A DNA stretch of 41,822 bases, taken from the sequence record OR539216.1, one strand, 5' to 3'. The notes beneath the pieces are model-generated. The model was not told the DNA's origin and searched no databases. It saw nothing but the letters and a program-made list of their open reading frames with translations. The DNA is from Escherichia phage vB-Eco-KMB41. A program made the translations under genes and the position numbers. Shown one piece after another: positions 6,046-36,756 of the stretch (within the stretch, counting starts at the first letter, position 1; the number at the start of each line of letters is the position of its first letter).

Positions 6046-6626
6046 TAAATCCTCGCTGGCATGATGATCAGCGTTGCGTTGCCGTCCGGCGTTTCGAAGT
6101 CCACGCGGATCGGGTTGGTGTTGCCGTTAAAGCTGAGTTTCGCGAACGGCTTCTTAATGCCGAACTTTTTCCCCAGCTTCTCGATCATTCCGAGGTAAGG
6201 GGTCGCGACGCCGATCACTTCGACGGCCTTCGAGTTCTGGCGGGCCTCGTTCAGCAGACGATCAACGTCGGGATAGTTGGCGTCCACAATGTCCACGGTC
6301 CCCACGGCTACGCGGGCTTTCTTGTGGTCAACGTCGGCGAGGTCCTTCGGCTTGTCTGCCGGAATGTCCAGCCAGTACACGATCCCCGCCTCGGTGTCGA
6401 TCACGGCGGAATAGATCCGCCCAGTCGGTGGCGCGGAGATGTTCAGGATAATCCCCTCCGCTGGAGCCTCGACCAGCTTATGGTCGCTTTCGAGGCAAAC
6501 ATGACCGTTAGACGTGCGGATCCGGCTACCGATGAAGTGGATCGCGTTCAGGTAGTAGCGGACCTCGTTCTGGGCCTTCGTCAGTTGGTGAGCGCGTAAG
6601 GCGCTTACAGGTGCATAAATAATCAT
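6045..6626 (-). CDS. hypothetical protein (193 aa)
   Basis: ORF in replication-associated array; no recognisable motif. Confidence 0.65.
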   Translation of the reverse strand: MIIYAPVSALRAHQLTKAQNEVRYYLNAIHFIGSRIRTSNGHVCLESDHKLVEAPAEGIILNISAPPTGRIYSAVIDTEAGIVYWLDIPADKPKDLADVDHKKARVAVGTVDIVDANYPDVDRLLNEARQNSKAVEVIGVATPYLGMIEKLGKKFGIKKPFAKLSFNGNTNPIRVDFETPDGNATLIIMPARI

Positions 6627-11911: not shown

Positions 11912-12634
11912 ATGGTATTTTCTGAATCACGCGCCGCAATTGTCCCGGCAATGGTTAAGGCCCGAATCGCTATGATGTCGGAAGCCAAAAAGAACACGCA
12001 AAATAATCACCTTAATAACTGGTATGCGGATCTTGGATCGTTCCTGTCCACAATCCGCCCGGCGCTGGAGTCGAACGGTCTGATCGTCGTTCAGACGCCT
12101 ATGCCCTGCACTGAAAAAAATAACATGCTCGTGTTACCGCTGGAGACGATGGTCCTCCACGAGTCCGGCGAGTTCATGACCGCCGTTATGGAAATGCCTC
12201 TCTCGTTCGGCAAGGGCGCGGCGGCTCACTCTGTCGGCTCGGCGATCACCTATGCCCGACGCTATCACCTGGCGGCGCTGTTCGGCATCACCCAGGCAGA
12301 CGACGACGGCAACGCGACGAAGAAAACCGCCCGCCAGTGGATCGCAGATCTCGAAGGGATCGAGGACGTGGCGAAGCTGGACGAAGCCGTGGGGAAAGTG
12401 GTCCACGCGCTGGCAGACGATCAGGCATCCGTGAAGGTTGTCCGCGACTGGCATATTTCCCGCAAAGCGGCATTGCGAGCCAGCGAGGCGAAAGGCTTTA
12501 GCCCTGCCTCGGTTGTTAAACAGAAAAAAGGCGCTGATAATGCCCCGGCAAAAGAACAGCCCGCCGCCCCGGTAGAGCCTCAAAAGGACGAAGCCCCGGC
12601 GGCGGAAGATAAACCGAATATTGAGGACTTTTAA
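11912..12634 (+). CDS. erf: Erf-family single-strand annealing protein
   Basis: Erf signature region ([15 protein letters not shown]) and acidic/Pro-rich C-terminal tail; ATG at 11912 preceded by AAGGAGA. Confidence 0.8.
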
Positions 12635-22300: not shown

Positions 22301-23752
22301 TCAGGTCACACGGACACGCGCCCGCGAGAGAGTCGCCGGGGTTGCGCCTACGGTGCGAATTTTGAAGCCAATAGCGGACCGGACTCGGCCCACGACGCGT
22401 AAGATAACGTTCTGGAGCCAGTGGAAAGGCTTGTTATAGTCGATGCTTTTCTCCTGCCCGTACACGATCCCGTCCTCGGTAGCGGAGAGCCAGATCCGGC
22501 TCGCCACGGAGTCGCCCCCGGTGCTGGCGTCCATGCGGAAGTCAGCAAGGATCGCATTCTCGGCCCACAGCAAAGGCGTATACAGGACGATCTCCTGGTC
22601 CTCGCCATATTGAGCGCTGGTCGTGTGGTCAAGCTGGCCCAGCCACGGCTCCACCTTGTCGCCACAGGTGATCACCTTGCCCTCGTTCACGTAGTCGATC
22701 GCGCGGTGCGGCTTGATGCCGTTAATACCCGTTTTGATGTACGACCAGACCGGGACGCCCTGCGCCTGGCTAACCGGGTGATCGTAAACCAGCGTGTAGT
22801 CCGGGAGGTGGACAATAAGCAATTTGTGCGTTTCAAAGGTCAGTGACTCCAGTCGGACGTCCGCCAGTTCCTCCACGGTGTAACCCATGAGGATCTTCTT
22901 AACTTCCACGCTCGCCAGTTCGGACCACGATCCGCCGCCGGGGTTCATGAGGCCGATCGAGAGGTCGCCGGAGAACGGGGAGACGAGGAACGCGAAGGAC
23001 TCCAGATACTCGCACACGCTTTCACGCCCGATCGTCCCGGCGTCGATGGTGTAGGAGGGCTGGTTCGCGTAGACGTTCTGATCGTCACCAGTCAGGCCGA
23101 AGAACTCGATCGAGGCGCTACCGAAGCAAACGACATAATCACGCCACGAGCGGATCGCCACGATGCCGTCCGGCATGGACTCGGCACGATACGCCGGGGC
23201 CGTCTTGTCCGGGTGCGTCTCGTCGTCCAGGTCGGAGATCCAAAAGGTGTCCGTCCCCTTCGTGGAGAAAATAAAGCGCTGGCGGAGGTGGCACACGTCG
23301 TTAATGTCGCCCCAGTTGTATTGTGCGATCGGGTCGTCGTCCGACGTGGGCCAGTTGGAGAACGCCGTCCGGCTCCCGTCGTAGCCGATCATGATCATCC
23401 TGTTCTCGGTCACGATCGCCACGCGGTCCCGGCTATGCGCCATCGGGGTACGGTCTACGCCCGTGATATCCGTCACCACTTCGCCGTCCAGATAAAGGGA
23501 CTGGCCCATGACGCGGTAAGTCTGGCCTTTGACCGTGTTCCAGTCAGCGCCACGGCTTACGCCCGCCACGTCGTCCCCGCGCTTCGTAATGCCCGGCATG
23601 ATGCGCATATAGCCGTTGCCGCCCTTGATGTTGCGGCTCACGGCGAGCATGTTCTCCGGTAGCCGCGTTGACCAGTCGAGCGTGTTGGAGCGACGTCCGT
23701 CGCCATAGAGCAAGGGGATCGTGATCTCCTGCCCGCGTTCTGGGTTCCTCAT
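22301..23752 (-). CDS. tail hub protein (P22 gp10-like)
   Basis: Multiple blocks match P22 gp10 as recalled (PGITKR, GVSRG, SNWP, DLDDETHPD, YRAESMPDGI, WRDYVVCFGS, ITCGDK, LSATEDGI.YG.E, IGFK.R). Confidence 0.9.
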   Translation of the reverse strand: MRNPERGQEITIPLLYGDGRRSNTLDWSTRLPENMLAVSRNIKGGNGYMRIMPGITKRGDDVAGVSRGADWNTVKGQTYRVMGQSLYLDGEVVTDITGVDRTPMAHSRDRVAIVTENRMIMIGYDGSRTAFSNWPTSDDDPIAQYNWGDINDVCHLRQRFIFSTKGTDTFWISDLDDETHPDKTAPAYRAESMPDGIVAIRSWRDYVVCFGSASIEFFGLTGDDQNVYANQPSYTIDAGTIGRESVCEYLESFAFLVSPFSGDLSIGLMNPGGGSWSELASVEVKKILMGYTVEELADVRLESLTFETHKLLIVHLPDYTLVYDHPVSQAQGVPVWSYIKTGINGIKPHRAIDYVNEGKVITCGDKVEPWLGQLDHTTSAQYGEDQEIVLYTPLLWAENAILADFRMDASTGGDSVASRIWLSATEDGIVYGQEKSIDYNKPFHWLQNVILRVVGRVRSAIGFKIRTVGATPATLSRARVRVT

Positions 23753-24204
23753 TTCGCCGTCCCGTCATAGTAGAATCGATCTTGTGGGAAATATGGGTTA
23801 TTCCCCTGCCCGGTTGGCATATCGTTACGCTGTTTGAGGCTCGGCACTTCGTAGAACTGGATCTTAATGATGTCCCATTGTTCCTTTAGTACCGCGTTCA
23901 TTTCCGGCGTTAAATCGCGCTGCATATCCAGGAGGATCCGCTGGGCCAGCTTGAGGGCGATCCCCTCTTTGGTCCACAGGTCCAGCCCGGAGTCCTCGTT
24001 CCCGTCCGGTACGCCGTCGGCGTTGGTCGTGAAGATATAGGGCAAGGCTACGCCGTCTTTGATCACCGTAGCCATTAAGCCCTCCAGATCCTCCAGCGCG
24101 TCGTTGATTTGCTGGGGATCTGGCATCATGAGAACAGCAGACGACGCCAGCCCGCCACGGCGTAACGCCAGGTTAACGATCTGGATCTTCTGCAAAGTTG
24201 CCAT
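23749..24204 (-). CDS. tail adaptor protein (P22 gp4-like)
   Basis: N-terminal block (VNLALRRGGLASSAVL...INDALEDLEGLMA) and C-terminal MPTGQGN match P22 gp4 as recalled. Confidence 0.85.
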   Translation of the reverse strand: MATLQKIQIVNLALRRGGLASSAVLMMPDPQQINDALEDLEGLMATVIKDGVALPYIFTTNADGVPDGNEDSGLDLWTKEGIALKLAQRILLDMQRDLTPEMNAVLKEQWDIIKIQFYEVPSLKQRNDMPTGQGNNPYFPQDRFYYDGTAK

Positions 24205-24206
24205 AA

Positions 24207-24716
24207 TTATTTTTTCGCCTTCTTGTCAGTCGGGACTTTCGCGCCGTCTACCTTCTCGCCGTCTTTCGGCTTGGATTCGTCGGCCTTCGCTTCCTGGGTG
24301 GATTCCTGAGCCTCTGCGCCGCTCTCTGGCGCTTTCTCGGCTTCGGCGTCCTTCGGTGCGTATTTAGGCTCGGAGGCCGTAGCGGTCGATTCTGGGGCCT
24401 TCTCGTCCACCTTCTTGTCCTGCTCTTTCTTGAGGTTCTCGGCTTCCTGCTCGTCCTGCTCCTGTTTGTCGGCCTTCGCCTCCTTCTCGGCGGCTTCCTT
24501 GATCGCTTCGTCCAGTTCGGCGAGGCGGTTCGGATGATCCACCCAGAAGCCAGACGCCAGACGCTCGGCGGCTTCTTCTTCGGCAAAGATGGCGTAATGG
24601 CCTTCGATATTGCCGGAACGGAACGGCGTCAGACGGATGCCCTCGGCGGCTACGATAGCCGGGCGGGTGTACAACATTACGGTGATAGCTGCTGCGAGTG
24701 CGGTTTTACGCGTCAT
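24207..24716 (-). CDS. secreted low-complexity Lys/Glu/Ala-rich protein with N-terminal signal peptide (169 aa)
   Basis: N-terminus MTRKTALAAAITVMLYTRPAIVAA has signal-peptide character; the rest is highly charged low-complexity sequence. No P22 gene sits between coat and gp4. Confidence 0.6.
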   Translation of the reverse strand: MTRKTALAAAITVMLYTRPAIVAAEGIRLTPFRSGNIEGHYAIFAEEEAAERLASGFWVDHPNRLAELDEAIKEAAEKEAKADKQEQDEQEAENLKKEQDKKVDEKAPESTATASEPKYAPKDAEAEKAPESGAEAQESTQEAKADESKPKDGEKVDGAKVPTDKKAKK

Positions 24717-24761
24717 GGTAGATCCTCGTTATTGGGTGATGTTCGGGGAACAGTATAAGCG

Positions 24762-24790
24762 ATAAAAAAAGGGGAGCCAATGGCTCCCCC
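24762..24790 (-). terminator. Rho-independent terminator after coat gene (minus sense: GGGGGAGCC-loop-GGCTCCCC + T7)
   Basis: Long GC stem followed by TTTTTTT on the minus strand just downstream of the coat stop. Confidence 0.75.
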
Positions 24791-24812
24791 TTCTGCGAGT
24801 GCTTTCGCGCTC

Positions 24813-26072
24813 TTACGACTGCTTAGGCAGTACCAGGCCGACATATTCCGGCACGAGGACGGAGGTCCCGTACAGGGTAGTGAATCGGCAAGTGGTCACG
24901 CCCGCGATGTGATCGAACGCGTAGGACATGATCAGCGTCGCGCCCTGTTTGGTGGTGGCTCGCATTACCTGCGGACCTTGACCAGTAGGGAACGCCAGAT
25001 TACCGAACATCAGTTCCACGGAGCCGTCGGCCCACAGGAGGTTAGCGTTAGCCGCTGCCTTGTTGATCACGGTCAGCGCTGCGCCGGAGGCCGCGTTCGC
25101 GTCCACGTTCGCGTAAGGGCGAGATGGCACGTCGGCATTGTTCGGCGGCAGGATCTGAGGGGTGATCGTGATGTTGTTGCCGGAAACATCCAGGACGCGG
25201 AACACTTGAGGGGTGTCCGTGGTGTCCTTGCTGATCATGTGAACCATGTTCACGCCCGCGATGGTGAACGCGTCGCCAGCTTCCAGGCCGTGACCAGCGG
25301 AAACGGAGATGATGCCCTGGCGGTTATCGACCGGGAGATCGTTCGCGTCTTTCGCTACGACTTTGTGAGCCGGAGCGGAGGCCAGCGTGATCGCGCCAGT
25401 CGGGCCAGCGCCCAGTCGTGCGGAGATGTCGGTCTGGTACGAGTCAAAGCCCGCAACGTCCGGGATCTTCGCCTTTTCGTAGGCGGTCTGGGTCAGACCT
25501 GCGGCGTATTGACGTCCGCCCAGTTCTTTAGCCAGATCTTTGTAAGAGAACGCGTTCCAGAAGGAGCGCTTATTCACGCCCTGCGGGATGCCGATCGAGG
25601 TGAACTGAGCGCCCACTTGTGCGGCTGCGTCCCACAGATCGAGGCCCAGGGTCCCCTGAGAGTTATCGCCTACCGGGATCACATGGGTAGCGTAACGCGC
25701 TGCGGTAGCGATCAGGTCGGAGTCGATCTTCGCTGCTACACGCTGGCCCGCTGCTCGGCCCATTTCTTTCTTGTGCTCCGGGTCGCGCATCTCGCGAGCG
25801 TCCAATTTCCACAGGACGTTCTGAGGCTCTTTAAAAGCCGACGGGACGAGACGCTGGACGATATCGGTCCCGGTTTTCCCGGTCAGGTCCAGACCTTCGA
25901 TGATATCCGCGTGATAACGCTGCGGACGGTATTCAACGTCCCCGGCGCGTTGCATCGCGGTATCGCTTGGGCGGTATTTCGCGGCGTTCTGCGATACCAC
26001 GCAAGACGCTTCGAAGCTCTCCACATACTCCTCGAAAGCGATTTCGAGGTCCTTCGCTAACTGGTTAGCCAT
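24813..26072 (-). CDS. major capsid (coat) protein, P22 gp5-like
   Basis: Blocks match P22 coat as recalled (AKYRPSDTAMQR, RPYANVDANAASGAALTVIN, LLWADGSVEL); 419 aa; followed by a strong terminator. Confidence 0.9.
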   Translation of the reverse strand: MANQLAKDLEIAFEEYVESFEASCVVSQNAAKYRPSDTAMQRAGDVEYRPQRYHADIIEGLDLTGKTGTDIVQRLVPSAFKEPQNVLWKLDAREMRDPEHKKEMGRAAGQRVAAKIDSDLIATAARYATHVIPVGDNSQGTLGLDLWDAAAQVGAQFTSIGIPQGVNKRSFWNAFSYKDLAKELGGRQYAAGLTQTAYEKAKIPDVAGFDSYQTDISARLGAGPTGAITLASAPAHKVVAKDANDLPVDNRQGIISVSAGHGLEAGDAFTIAGVNMVHMISKDTTDTPQVFRVLDVSGNNITITPQILPPNNADVPSRPYANVDANAASGAALTVINKAAANANLLWADGSVELMFGNLAFPTGQGPQVMRATTKQGATLIMSYAFDHIAGVTTCRFTTLYGTSVLVPEYVGLVLPKQS

Positions 26073-26108: not shown

Positions 26109-27107
26109 TTACTTCTTCCGGTTCTTCGCTGCCAGGTAATCCGTATAATCTCCGGTTGCTTCGGCGCGTTTGCGGAGGGCTTCGAGTTGCCCCACGTTCG
26201 CGACGCCGTTCTGGCCTTTGACTTCTGGCGTTTTGTTTACTTCTTTCTTGGCCTTTGGTGCGCGTCCTGCGCGGCTCTCAATATCGCGGATAAGGTAGCC
26301 CAGCCCGATATGGTCCGTATTGTAGGCTTCCTCGACCTGTTTACGCAAATCCGCGTTACGACCGATCGCCATTACGACGCCCGCCGGGTCGTTCTTGCTA
26401 TGGATCATCATTGCCGCCTGGAGTGGTTCCGGCAGTTCTGCGATCACGGCTTCCGCCTTCTCATAGCCCGCAAAGCGTTTTAACGCCTTCGCGCGTTCCG
26501 TCTGGTAGCGCTGCTGGCCTTCGCTGAATTGTTTGCCGAAAACCTCCATGCGCTGGGCTTGCTTTTCCTGGTGCTGCTGCCATGCGGCCTTATCTTCGGT
26601 CCACTTGTCCAGCGCCTCGGCGTACTTCTCCGGGTCCCAGTCGATCCCTTCGTCGCCCATTTCCGGCTTACGCGGCATATCGGCGGGGATGTTCGCTGGA
26701 TCCTTCTTCTGGGTGGATTCCTTGAACTGTTTCTTTTGCTCGCGGAGTTGGGCGCGAAGATGCTTAACCAGATCGGTGTCGCCTTCCTGATCGTCCTCGT
26801 CGGAGGCTTCCACGGTCACAGGCTTGCCGTCGAACAAAAACTCCTCTTGCTCGTCGTCGTCGCCGCCGTTCTCGCCGTTCTCGCCTTCCTTCGCCTTCGG
26901 CTTGCCGTTTTCGTCCAGGTCCTGCTCGTCCGTGTCAGTGTCCGCATTGTCGCGATCCTGCTCGTCCGGGTCGGTGTCCGGGGTGTCGTCGGCGTTGTCG
27001 TTCTGGTCCGCGTTCTCGCTGTTCTGCATAGCTTCATACGCCGCCGCGCCGCCGTCGTTCTCGGTGTGCGGTGCGTAATATTTCAAAAACATTTCACGGA
27101 ATTTCAT
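26109..27107 (-). CDS. scaffolding protein
   Basis: Highly acidic N-terminal half, helical Lys/Glu/Gln-rich body; positioned immediately upstream of coat as in P22 gene 8. Confidence 0.75.
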   Translation of the reverse strand: MKFREMFLKYYAPHTENDGGAAAYEAMQNSENADQNDNADDTPDTDPDEQDRDNADTDTDEQDLDENGKPKAKEGENGENGGDDDEQEEFLFDGKPVTVEASDEDDQEGDTDLVKHLRAQLREQKKQFKESTQKKDPANIPADMPRKPEMGDEGIDWDPEKYAEALDKWTEDKAAWQQHQEKQAQRMEVFGKQFSEGQQRYQTERAKALKRFAGYEKAEAVIAELPEPLQAAMMIHSKNDPAGVVMAIGRNADLRKQVEEAYNTDHIGLGYLIRDIESRAGRAPKAKKEVNKTPEVKGQNGVANVGQLEALRKRAEATGDYTDYLAAKNRKK

Positions 27108-27235
27108 CGTAGATCCTCACTTTGTTACATACGCGATGTATTTCGCCCATCGGTGGCGGGAGTAAGTTTAAGCGAGGGCGGCGGGAAAATGCAAATAGGG
27201 GAGATCGCGATTAACGATCCCCCCAGTGTGGCGGG

Positions 27236-28629: not shown

Positions 28630-28655
28630 AGAATAGCCCGGACTTGCCGGGCTTG
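28630..28655 (-). terminator. Terminator-like hairpin after portal gene (AGCCCGG-loop-CCGGGCT)
   Basis: 7-bp GC stem followed in minus sense by ATTCTTT, about 30 bp downstream of the portal stop. Confidence 0.45.
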
Positions 28656-28683: not shown

Positions 28684-30918
28684 TTAGACGCCTTCGAGTC
28701 CCATCTGGCGGTCTGCGGTCTGCCGGGCTTGCTGCTCTGCCAGTTCCTGCGCCCGCTGGTCGCTCTGCTGGCTGTAGCCCTGGCCCTGAGCCTTGAGGAA
28801 CAGATCCGCCTGTTTGTGGGCGTCGCTGTTCTGCTGGCTCACGTACTTCTGGAGGACGGCGATCGCGTTCAATAGCTGATCCTGCGGGATTGCCGCCGCC
28901 TCTGCCATCGTCTTGACCGTCTGGGCGTTTTTCAGTTGACCGTCGGACGCGGTGCTCTGCGCTTTCAGGGTCAGATCTAAACGCTTGTTCTCCTGCTCCA
29001 TCACTGCGGCCTTGCCCTGGTCGGCTACGCCCTGCGCGGCTACCATTTCGGCGTCCGGCTGGCTCTGGGAGGCTTGCTGGGCCTGGGCGACCATCGCCTT
29101 TTCTTCGTCCGTCTGCGGCTTGATGATGCCATTCAGGAGAAGCTGGCGGCGGCTGTATTCTTTGAAGTCCTGCAAGCCTTCGCCGTCCATGTTCATGATG
29201 ATCAGGCCCATGACTACAGCGGCGTTCGGGTCGCCTGGTGCCATCGACTGGAGGAGATTCGTCAGGCTGCGAACGGTTGCGACGCGCTTCGTCTGGGAGG
29301 ATTCGCCCACGTCGGCCTCGACCTCATATTTCCCGCGCTTGAGGTCGTTAATCGCGATCGCCTCGTCAGTGTCACGGTCGATCACTTTCCCGGTCATTAA
29401 CACGAGATCGTCCGTTCCGTCCTCGTTCTTGATGCGGACATAGTTCTCCGAGCCGTAGACCTTGCGGGCCGCGCTGAGGTAAACGCGTCCGCAATGGCGG
29501 AGGGTTTTCCCCAGGTTGTCCATGTAGAGAGCGCCCTGTCCGTCCATGCGGGCGAAAATGGCCTCCACGGTTTCGGTCGCCAGGTTCGACGGTAGCGCCT
29601 CCACCTGGGACGAGCCGACGATCTGCTGGATAGTGCTCCCGGTGTACTGTAGGACCGCTGCCAGCGCCGGAGAGAGCGGAGTCGATGGCGTGTATCCTAA
29701 CGGCCCGGCTTGCTGCACGACCTCACCAGCGGCATTACGGAGCGATTTCGCGGGCAAGTATGCCGGGCGCTTCGTGTTACGTTCCCCCCAGGCGTCCGCC
29801 AGCTTGCCGGGAATCATATCAATGTCCATGATCGGGATGTTATCGCCGCCAGACTGCGCGGCCTGGTCCGCCATCATGGACACGATCAGGTTTTCCAGAC
29901 GTTGCGCGTCGAGGGCCTGGGTCGCATGACCGCTTACGCGCTCCATGTTGTCGATGAAGGAGCGGCGGGCGTTGAACACGAAGATCGGGATCCACTCGAA
30001 CGGGATCAGCTTCGGCTCCTCCAGCCATTCGCCGCCAGTCATAAGGCCGCAATAGACCTTACGGCGTTTCACCTTGCGGTCCTTCTGGCGCTCCCAGCCT
30101 CCGGCCTTAAGCTCGTCCTCGATCTGTTCGATATCGTCCTCGTCGTAGACCTCCACCTCCCCGGTGATCGGGTTCTTATAGGAGATCACGGTGGTGTCCT
30201 CGATCTTCACCTCGTAGTAGCGGGCGATGTAGATCGCGTCCTTCGTGGCCCAGTCGAATTGTTTCCCGGTATCGATCGCCATCAGGTCCTCCGGTGCGAG
30301 GGCATCGGGATAGCGCTCCTCGTACTTGTCCGGGGTCATGCTGAATAGCTCCGCCATCCACATAGCATCACTGCGATCGTACATTTTGGAGTCCTGATCG
30401 ACGAACAGGCACGAGGCCGGATCATAGATCGGATAAAACACGATATGCCGCGTCTCGTTGTCCGGGTCGAACTCGTCCTCCAGTTCGGTGTCCATGCGGA
30501 AAGCGCCCATTCCCCCGGTCACGCCGTCGTCGTAGGTGTTGTCTACGGCTTCCGGCCCGTTTGACTCCTGGAAGTCGGCGCGAAACTTGCCGTTCAGCTT
30601 GTCCGCCAGTTCCTCGGAGGCCTGGGTGTCTTTCGGGCGGAACGTCACGGAGACGCGGTTCAGGCGGTAGTCGGAAATGATGCGATCGACCTCGCGCCCG
30701 ACTTTGTTAAGTTCGAATCGAGGGTATTTCTGGAAACGCTCGTCGTCCATAGCAAAGCCGGAGTTCGTCGAGCCTTCCCACTGAGCGCCGGGGATGCGGA
30801 CGAAGCGGGCCGTCTCGATCATCTTCTTGCGGCTCTGCTCCTCGCTGCCGATCGCGGCGCTTAATTTGTTTCGGGCGCATTCCTGCCAGTTCTGCGCCTT
30901 CTTCGTGACTCGTGCCAT
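28684..30918 (-). CDS. portal protein (P22 gp1-like)
   Basis: Blocks match P22 portal as recalled (YDRSDA, ARYYEVK, NPITGEVEVY, RKVKRRKVY) with a Gln/Ala-rich helical C-terminal barrel region; 744 aa. Confidence 0.9.
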   Translation of the reverse strand: MARVTKKAQNWQECARNKLSAAIGSEEQSRKKMIETARFVRIPGAQWEGSTNSGFAMDDERFQKYPRFELNKVGREVDRIISDYRLNRVSVTFRPKDTQASEELADKLNGKFRADFQESNGPEAVDNTYDDGVTGGMGAFRMDTELEDEFDPDNETRHIVFYPIYDPASCLFVDQDSKMYDRSDAMWMAELFSMTPDKYEERYPDALAPEDLMAIDTGKQFDWATKDAIYIARYYEVKIEDTTVISYKNPITGEVEVYDEDDIEQIEDELKAGGWERQKDRKVKRRKVYCGLMTGGEWLEEPKLIPFEWIPIFVFNARRSFIDNMERVSGHATQALDAQRLENLIVSMMADQAAQSGGDNIPIMDIDMIPGKLADAWGERNTKRPAYLPAKSLRNAAGEVVQQAGPLGYTPSTPLSPALAAVLQYTGSTIQQIVGSSQVEALPSNLATETVEAIFARMDGQGALYMDNLGKTLRHCGRVYLSAARKVYGSENYVRIKNEDGTDDLVLMTGKVIDRDTDEAIAINDLKRGKYEVEADVGESSQTKRVATVRSLTNLLQSMAPGDPNAAVVMGLIIMNMDGEGLQDFKEYSRRQLLLNGIIKPQTDEEKAMVAQAQQASQSQPDAEMVAAQGVADQGKAAVMEQENKRLDLTLKAQSTASDGQLKNAQTVKTMAEAAAIPQDQLLNAIAVLQKYVSQQNSDAHKQADLFLKAQGQGYSQQSDQRAQELAEQQARQTADRQMGLEGV

Positions 30919-36416: not shown

Positions 36417-36756
36417 TAGTGAGTAAGTATAAGCGCCCGTTCCTCATGGAGCGGACCATCTGCGAGGATCCCCAGCCTCCCGGCACTCGGTACATCATGC
36501 CGTTAGCGCCCCGGCAGTAGAGGCGGTTACGGTCGCGGAAGCCGCGAAGCTGTCGCCCTGTCTGCGTCCCCTTCGGGTCCACGATGCGGCAGAATACCGG
36601 AGCGCCGCCGTATAGCTGCGTAAGGTCGTGAATGTGCTTACGCTGGGCTTGCTGGACCATCTCCTCCGCCTCTTTCCATGCGCATGACTCGCACAGGCCG
36701 GAGGCAGTACCCGCCGCGATCGGCAGGTGGCAACGTCGGCAGTAACTAAAGACCAT
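36403..36756 (-). CDS. zinc-ribbon protein (117 aa)
   Basis: N-terminal CRRCH...CESC (CxxC-N12-CxxC) motif. Confidence 0.6.
   Translation of the reverse strand: MVFSYCRRCHLPIAAGTASGLCESCAWKEAEEMVQQAQRKHIHDLTQLYGGAPVFCRIVDPKGTQTGRQLRGFRDRNRLYCRGANGMMYRVPGGWGSSQMVRSMRNGRLYLLTNGMY

Follow-up and report, generated by a model that had tools for sequence, protein, structure and literature searches.

Between the coat gene and the tail-adaptor gene of Escherichia phage vB-Eco-KMB41 (sequence record OR539216.1) lies an open reading frame (ORF) of 169 codons, here called ORF169 (24207..24716, minus strand, with an ATG start and a TAA stop at 24207-24209). What kind of gene is this, and is it peculiar to this phage? 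The window, i.e. the whole 41,822-nucleotide stretch that was analysed, belongs to a lytic podovirus in the Murrayvirus group and covers nearly the whole genome; the nucleotide identity is 92% to ST231 and 83-85% to IME_EC2, sortsyn and Lumpael (10 kb structural region). A first-pass annotation, which gave no strand for the gene, had placed it between the coat and tail-adaptor genes, and the flanking matches bear this out: the upstream neighbour at 24813..26072 (minus) is a P22-type coat gene (PF11651, E 5e-72; phrog_283) and the downstream neighbour at 23749..24204 (minus) is a P22 gp4-type adaptor gene (PF11650, E 4e-23; phrog_637). We found that ORF169 is not unique to this phage: it belongs, as a divergent and extended member, to a widespread but uncharacterised family of small genes in P22-like phages. 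Judged by sequence and position, it appears to be the Murrayvirus version of a small accessory gene that occupies the slot between coat and adaptor genes in the structural modules of P22-like phages.

Kinship of ORF169 with P22 orf69

ORF169 is a real coding gene and not a chance ORF of a GC-rich genome, because it matches phrog_28530 (labelled 'unknown function') at E 9.5e-54, has syntenic homologues, differs in length from its orthologues by multiples of three and is under purifying selection. Its orthologues were found in 13 phage records, all at the same position, and in 25 clusters of a large protein collection. The whole-gene ratio of nonsynonymous to synonymous substitution rates (dN/dS) is 0.36-0.56 against six relatives. 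Purifying selection acts on both the N-terminal domain (N-domain) and the C-terminal tail: the N-domain has 0 nonsynonymous and 6 synonymous changes relative to ST231 (p = 1.6e-4), and the tail (the last 19 codons) has 0 and 3-4 relative to sortregn and sortsyn (p = 0.008 and 0.001, respectively), with 4 for sortsyn. A 112-residue ORF on the same strand (24248-24586) overlaps ORF169 and was treated as a by-product of its GAA/AAG-rich repetitive coding sequence.

The conservation of the family was read from an alignment of 20 homologues. Residues 14-72 are strongly conserved, beginning with M14, Y16, R18, P19, I21 and E25 and continuing with AIF.E.EA..RL..GFWVDHP..L..LD..I. Within residues 14-62 the first six of these are invariant, as are A42, I43, F44, E46, E48, A49, R52, L53, G56, W58, V59, D60, H61 and P62. 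An AlphaFold (AF2) model of residues 1-77 has a mean predicted local distance difference test score (pLDDT) of 80 and a predicted template modelling score (pTM) of 0.63. Residues 11-76 are modelled at a pLDDT of about 80-89 and residues 1-7 at less than 50. The predicted secondary structure consists of a strand (12-17), a helix (19-25), a hairpin (30-45), a second helix (46-55), the GFWVDHP turn and a third helix (62-76). Conservation, the AF2 model, hhalign and BFVD comparisons together point to residues 14-61 (24534..24677, minus) as the core of an orf69-like N-domain.

The first-pass annotation stated that P22 has no equivalent gene at this position. This is wrong: in P22 the slot is filled by orf69 (NP_059631; phrog_1175), which lies at 6135-6344 behind a post-coat stem-loop at 6102-6119 and whose end is overlapped by gene 4. 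The orf69 protein reads MKIAIYKPGG...VKDGWLDHPSKL...KPRKGRKPKAVSDADKD, and two motifs can be paired with ORF169, IYKP with LYTRP and GWLDHPSKL with GFWVDHPNRL. BLASTP aligned ORF169 with orf69 at E 0.001, and the N-domain matched phrog_1175, the orf69 family, at E 0.01. The hhalign probability between the N-domain and the orf69 profile was 85.8%, and it was 96.5% (E 7.7e-10) once the orf69 profile was widened by ST64T Orf186 and the Skarpretter protein. Columns Y16, P19, G56, W58, D60, H61, P62 and L65 are invariant in the joint alignment. When the N-domain model was searched against BFVD with Foldseek, the top match was a Skarpretter protein of 102 residues (probability 0.99, E 0.1, TM 0.46, 23% identity), which is encoded between coat and gp4 in its own phage and matches phrog_3769 at E 3e-5. 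An exhaustive hidden Markov model (HMM) search with the N-domain profile against 1.84 billion representatives found only its own family (3 representatives), and the relationship to orf69 is therefore a remote one. On the strength of these profile and motif comparisons, residues 14-72 of ORF169 are best read as a remote homologue of orf69, of Orf186 of phages L and ST64T, and of the Skarpretter protein.

P22 orf69 shares with ORF169 the slot after a stem-loop, a 3' end that reaches gene 4 (17-nucleotide overlap), the N-domain motifs and a Lys-rich tail. It is, however, 69 rather than 169 residues long and lacks the hydrophobic extension, the Glu-Arg/Lys (ER/K) helix and the acidic disordered region of ORF169, and HMM-to-sequence searches give no database-wide significant link between it and the ORF169 family. 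L/ST64T Orf186 (AAL15528; phrog_3769) occupies the same slot, is similar in length and follows the same plan of N-domain (MGVMLYK...DDGWVKHPNEV), variable middle and basic tail, with a 17-nucleotide overlap with gp4 in ST64T. Whereas the middle of ORF169 consists of a charged helix and a disordered segment, that of Orf186 is a globular WDGH domain (PF25311), and its tail is of the P22 type (KPKAESDADKD). The Skarpretter protein (AZF88660 / A0A3G8F2V5) is encoded after a hairpin and T-run and 2 nucleotides before the gp4-type gene, and its N-domain is followed by a disordered Lys-rich tail (KTKKPAAKKGK). It differs from ORF169 in having EWYRHP instead of FWVDHP and a P/A-rich instead of an E/K-rich tail, and it has neither the hydrophobic extension nor the upstream GCTTATACT box described below. 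The Sf6 gene 6 protein (NP_958182; phrog_3251; 61 residues, locus 6147-6370) is also small, is encoded after 't coat', overlaps the gp4 homologue, and has a Lys/Arg-rich tail and a similar strand-helix-G-F pattern. Its hhalign probability was 0.9% and it has no W..HP motif, and its membership in the family is unsupported.

Several other comparisons gave nothing. Foldseek against the PDB returned no match at E < 0.4, a sequence-profile search of the PDB returned only chance matches to IsdH (E 0.04-0.1), an NCBIfam search returned only low-complexity noise, and ORF169 has no similarity to the scaffolding protein of the phage itself. Residues 25-68 of the N-domain gave repeated but weak tblastn matches to a single hypothetical protein from N4-like roseobacter phages (38-40% identity, E 2-8); these matches (e.g. 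DFL12phi1 11986-12150) are not significant and may be due to chance.

A signal-peptide-like N-terminus and a charged extension

Then, is the N-terminus a signal peptide, as the first-pass annotation had proposed, and may the protein be secreted? When inspected by eye and by rule, the sequence has n-, h- and c-region features and a V-A-A site: it starts with MTRK (charge +2), continues with TALAAAITVMLY and ends in TRPAIVAA|E. The hydrophobic stretch comprises 12-13 uncharged residues rich in A, I, L, V and T, with a mean Kyte-Doolittle value of 2.2 over 11 residues, and is followed by Pro19. These features, present in the window protein and in its closest relatives, are what would make the N-terminus a cleavable Sec signal peptide and ORF169 a periplasmic or secreted protein.

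The comparison with more distant orthologues argues against that reading. The hydrophobic stretch (residues 5-16) is limited to the Murrayvirus clade and is missing from P0024/25 and from Sortsne, Kc237, IME279 and sortkaff; the proteins of these last four start with MSRKTKQMIYTRP... or MSY(E/Q)QMIYTRP.... Among other homologues the stretch is weak in P0022, it is not preceded by any basic residue in P0009 and P0020, and in P0017 it is preceded only by His. The family-invariant residues M14, Y16, R18, P19, I21 and E25 fall in the would-be h- and c-regions and at the cleavage site. In the AF2 model, residues 12-17 (a strand of the sheet) and 19-25 (a helix) are placed inside the domain at a pLDDT of 80-85, and the alignment shows that the N-terminus of P22 orf69 is exactly the equivalent strand. 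Cleavage at A24|E25 would therefore remove part of the conserved fold. In addition, Arg18 is atypical for a c-region, a membrane anchor would need a longer uncharged stretch, and a lipobox would need a Cys, which is absent. We therefore rejected the signal peptide on comparative and structural grounds and regard it as probably a look-alike in this phage, absent from the Sortsnevirus orthologues and with its cleavage site inside the fold. Secretion is the least likely of all the explanations that we considered.

The clade-specific extension itself covers residues 1-13 (MTRKTALAAAITV; 24678..24716, minus) and contains the n-region and most of the signal-peptide-like h-region. Met14 as an internal start is unlikely, because the conserved Shine-Dalgarno sequence sits before Met1: GAGGA at 24723..24727 (minus) lies 6 nucleotides 5' of the ATG, and its GAG core is invariant in 7/7 aligned relatives. 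No such sequence precedes Met14, and the extension is conserved as protein.

The description of ORF169 as Lys/Glu-rich and of low complexity, with a disordered remainder, is correct for the C-terminal two thirds, since residues 62-169 are 67% K/E/D/A (K 19%, E 19%, D 9%, A 19%) and hydrophobic residues make up 7%. It does not hold for the first 60-75 residues, which are predicted to fold into a domain. The whole protein has an isoelectric point of 4.9 and a net charge of -10. Behind the N-domain, residues 62-106 (24399..24533, minus; K 20%, E 24%, D 11%) contain 9 i/i+4 and 7 i/i+3 opposite-charge pairs. A helix is predicted for residues 62-104 at a pLDDT of about 57-63, with residues 62-76 at about 78-87 in the domain-only run, and this segment is probably an ER/K single-alpha-helix-like spacer. 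Residues 107-150 (24267..24398, minus) form an acidic segment rich in Ala, Glu, Pro and Ser (net charge -6) that is predicted to be disordered (pLDDT < 50). Its length and sequence vary among homologues, and its dN/dS against close relatives is 0.45-0.69. The protein ends in a basic tail of residues 151-169 (PKDGEKVDGAKVPTDKKAKK; 24210..24266, minus; net charge +3), in which DGxKV repeats are followed by KKAKK. The number of DGxKV repeats differs among relatives; G158, K160, V161 and K168 are invariant.

Expression at the coat-adaptor junction

ORF169 is part of a P22-type morphogenesis module in which the genes follow each other on the same strand in the order scaffold (26109-27107, minus), coat, ORF169, gp4-type adaptor, gp10-type (22301-23752, minus), needle and gp7-type ejection protein. 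The adaptor ATG is only 2 nucleotides past the ORF169 stop, and translation of the two genes is therefore likely to be coupled. In every relative examined, the gp4-type gene starts with a 2-nucleotide gap or a 1-26-nucleotide overlap with the preceding small gene. Both the position of the slot and the tight spacing to gp4 are kept across Murrayvirus, Sortsnevirus, Skarprettervirus and Lederbergvirus.

Upstream, the gene is preceded by a strong post-coat terminator, as the first-pass annotation had it. The intrinsic-terminator-like hairpin at 24764..24792 (minus), AAGGGGGAGCC-AUU-GGCUCCCCUU, has a G+C-rich stem of 11-13 base pairs and is followed by a run of seven U. It was overlooked by a simple pattern scan and was seen by folding: the 96-nucleotide spacer between coat and ORF169, folded as a 99-nucleotide intergenic RNA, comes to -31.6 kcal/mol (z = -3.5), and none of 200 shuffled sequences folds as well. 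Each relative has its own perfect post-coat hairpin, of a different sequence, with a T-run, and the P22 and Sf6 records carry an annotated stem-loop at the same place, labelled 't coat' in Sf6. In the work on phage L, an intra-operon terminator that ends the procapsid module was proposed to reduce downstream mRNA by partial termination (PMC8022706). An Rfam search of the intergenic region between coat and ORF169 gave nothing above the gathering score. A fusion of coat and ORF169 by read-through or frameshift, as in T7 10B, was also considered, as both genes are in the same frame. It is not expected, because two in-frame TAA codons separate them (24717-24815, minus), namely that of coat itself and another that precedes the ATG by 4 codons.

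How could ORF169 be expressed behind a terminator? The suggestion that it may be separately regulated is plausible, with a candidate promoter at the terminator itself. A sigma-70-like element at 24752..24780 (minus) consists of a -35-like TTGGCT (24775-24780), a 17-nucleotide spacer and a -10-like TATACT (24752-24757), with 9/12 consensus matches, and its -35-like TTGGCT is located inside the 3' arm of the hairpin. The TATACT belongs to a 9-mer, GCTTATACT (24752-24760), that begins 3 nucleotides past the T-run. The TATACT core is invariant in seven aligned relatives despite differing flanks, and the full 9-mer reads GCATATACT in sortsyn. An exact-pattern search found the 9-mer at the same position in seven loci, with Lumpael and sortkaff among them and sortsyn not; it is kept before ORF169 in ST231, sortregn, Lumpael, IME279, sortkaff, Sortsne and Kc237. 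A second box, GCTTAAACT, stands after another hairpin about 58 nucleotides upstream of the scaffold gene, and ST231 also has a copy of the box before its scaffold gene. In the window, the exact 9-mer GCTTAWACT is present in three copies (24752-24760, 27165-27173 and 36426-36434, all minus) against an expectation of about 0.6. Each copy lies upstream of a gene and on the coding strand, and two of them, before ORF169 and before scaffold, directly follow hairpins. GCTTAWACT is a candidate -10 element of a phage promoter or a candidate regulatory box. Separate or supplementary transcription of ORF169 is plausible because of the conserved -10-like box, the -35-like TTGGCT and the copies of the box upstream of other genes.

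Some further features of the region were noted. A perfect 7-base-pair G+C-rich hairpin, AGCCCGG-ACTTG-CCGGGCT (28635-28653), directly follows the portal gene (28684-30918, minus); it scored terminator-like on both strands and has a weak T-run. An ORF of 426 residues at 24780-26060 on the plus strand is antisense to the whole coat gene and is probably an artefact of high G+C content. In the scaffold protein (26109-27107, minus), the N-terminus is extended by about 100 residues (~16-115) of low complexity that are rich in Asp, Glu and Asn and extremely acidic; the PHROG scaffold match begins only at residue 40, and there is no Pfam match.

Possible roles of the ORF169 protein

What could be the function of such a protein? 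The explanation that we tentatively prefer is that ORF169 stays in the cytoplasm and serves the head-completion module as an accessory protein. It is suggested by the conserved position, the probable coupling to gp4, the reduced expression expected after the terminator, a small domain suited to docking, and a charged spacer whose basic tip is constrained. The protein would combine an alpha/beta domain of about 60 residues, with the motifs (L/I)Y..P and G(F)W..HP, a Glu/Lys helix of about 45 residues, about 45 residues of acidic disorder and a Lys-rich tail. Most scaffold and coat transcripts would end at the post-coat hairpin, and ORF169 and the downstream head-completion genes would be expressed at a lower level by read-through, from the promoter-like element overlapping the terminator, or both. 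The N-domain might then dock on a conserved assembly partner, either the capsid or portal vertex or gp4, and the charged extension and its basic tip might, while packaging is under way or shortly afterwards, touch DNA or an acidic surface. ORF169 would thus help in packaging or head completion without being essential.

A possible parallel exists in phage lambda. The product of lambda Fi is a non-virion packaging chaperone that consists of a small folded domain and an unstructured charged region. The Fi gene lies between E and Fii, so that gpFI (PF14000; PDB 2LSM for its C-domain) is likewise encoded between the major capsid and head-tail adaptor genes, and it likewise combines a small folded domain with a long charged unstructured part and is acidic overall. 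The order of the parts is reversed in comparison with ORF169, as the folded domain of gpFI is C-terminal. The hhalign probabilities between ORF169 and PF14000 or phrog_92 were 0.15% and 0.09%, and ORF169 has no Pfam match at E <= 10. By this analogy, ORF169 would resemble gpFI in position and architecture and would not be homologous to it.

The identity part of our explanation, i.e. that ORF169 belongs to the orf69 family and is not secreted, is much more secure than the inferred mechanism, against which several points weigh. The putative promoter is a consensus match only, and the mechanism does not account for the hydrophobic extension of 10-13 residues in the Murrayvirus clade. Moreover, the N-domain does not evidently co-evolve in tight contact with coat or gp4, because P22 and L have gp4 proteins that are about 97% identical and nearly identical coat genes, whereas the N-domains of orf69 and Orf186 are only about 38% identical.

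By the same figures, the coat-gp4 slot is a mosaic hot spot. The middle segment of the family is absent in P22, a globular WDGH domain in L/ST64T, a P/A/K-rich linker in Skarpretter, and the ER/K helix with the acidic disordered region in Murrayvirus and Sortsnevirus; all versions end in Lys-rich tails. In ST64T/L Orf186 (ST64T 1801-2361) the WDGH domain (PF25311, E 2e-40) is set between the N-domain and the P22-type tail. The WDGH domain is also present in the phage protein families phrog_3392 and phrog_21846, and no literature on it was found.

Several explanations compete with a head-completion role. An unlikely one is a host-directed, moron-like or cargo protein whose N-domain carries variable payloads acting on host or defence functions. 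It would fit the exchange of orf69 for orf186 between nearly identical coat and gp4 genes, the insertion of the mobile WDGH domain in some members, the terminator and promoter-like elements of the gene itself and the strongly acidic, DNA-mimic-like middle. On the other hand, the N-domain and its position are kept over a very deep divergence, with strictly lytic genera included; true morons occupy variable sites and are unrelated to each other. Translation is likely coupled to gp4, and no PADLOC or defence-related match was seen, though no search was aimed at one. Quite improbable, in our view, is the related idea that the orf69-like N-domain is an anchoring or targeting module whose payloads can be exchanged and are delivered to the capsid or portal, or taken into the virion and injected; P22 would have none, L/ST64T the WDGH domain, and the Murrayviruses the ER/K spacer with an acidic DNA-mimic-like tail. 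If true, a model phage family would have a modular slot for cargo or decoration that had so far gone unrecognised. Least room is left, secretion apart, for ORF169 being a leader ORF, whose translation past the terminator delivers ribosomes to the gp4 start and whose protein has little function. The constant spacing to gp4 is what such a leader would show, yet the protein-level selection on the N-domain and C-terminal tail, the motifs conserved across genera and the confidently predicted fold make it very improbable.

A rather unlikely alternative places ORF169 in the virion as a minor or decoration protein, with the N-domain on the mature capsid or portal vertex and the helix and tail pointing outward as flexible 'hair'. 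The gene directly follows coat in a structural operon, and an anchor domain with a long spacer is a typical architecture of decoration fibres. Liquid chromatography-tandem mass spectrometry of the phage L virion found nine more phage proteins that are unnamed in the text of the paper; orf186 is not among the virion proteins that it names, and the list of P22 virion proteins (gp1, 5, 4, 10, 26, 14, 7, 20, 16 and 9) does not include orf69 (PMC8022706). No known decoration protein, Dec and gpD included, was found to resemble ORF169 in sequence or fold, and the upstream terminator should lower expression relative to coat. Virion proteomics for Murrayvirus, Sortsnevirus or Skarprettervirus was not found in the literature.

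The head-completion role thus remains our preferred, if tentative, explanation, and the interest of the finding, which is modest, comes mainly from tying together orf69, orf186 and the versions in lytic phages. P22 is a textbook system of phage assembly, and its small gene between coat and gene 4 is without an assigned function; for phage L, orf186 was described as a gene of 'detailed function unknown' that interrupts the synteny from coat to gene 4 (PMC8022706). One remote family appears to link P22 orf69 and L/ST64T orf186 with the longer charged proteins of the lytic Murrayvirus, Sortsnevirus and Skarprettervirus. Its members would have in common the N-domain, which is conserved, and the basic tail, with a middle that varies; they would be encoded always after the post-coat terminator, with coupling to the adaptor gene. 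A neglected P22 gene thereby becomes a testable target, and podoviruses gain a candidate helper of the gpFI kind.

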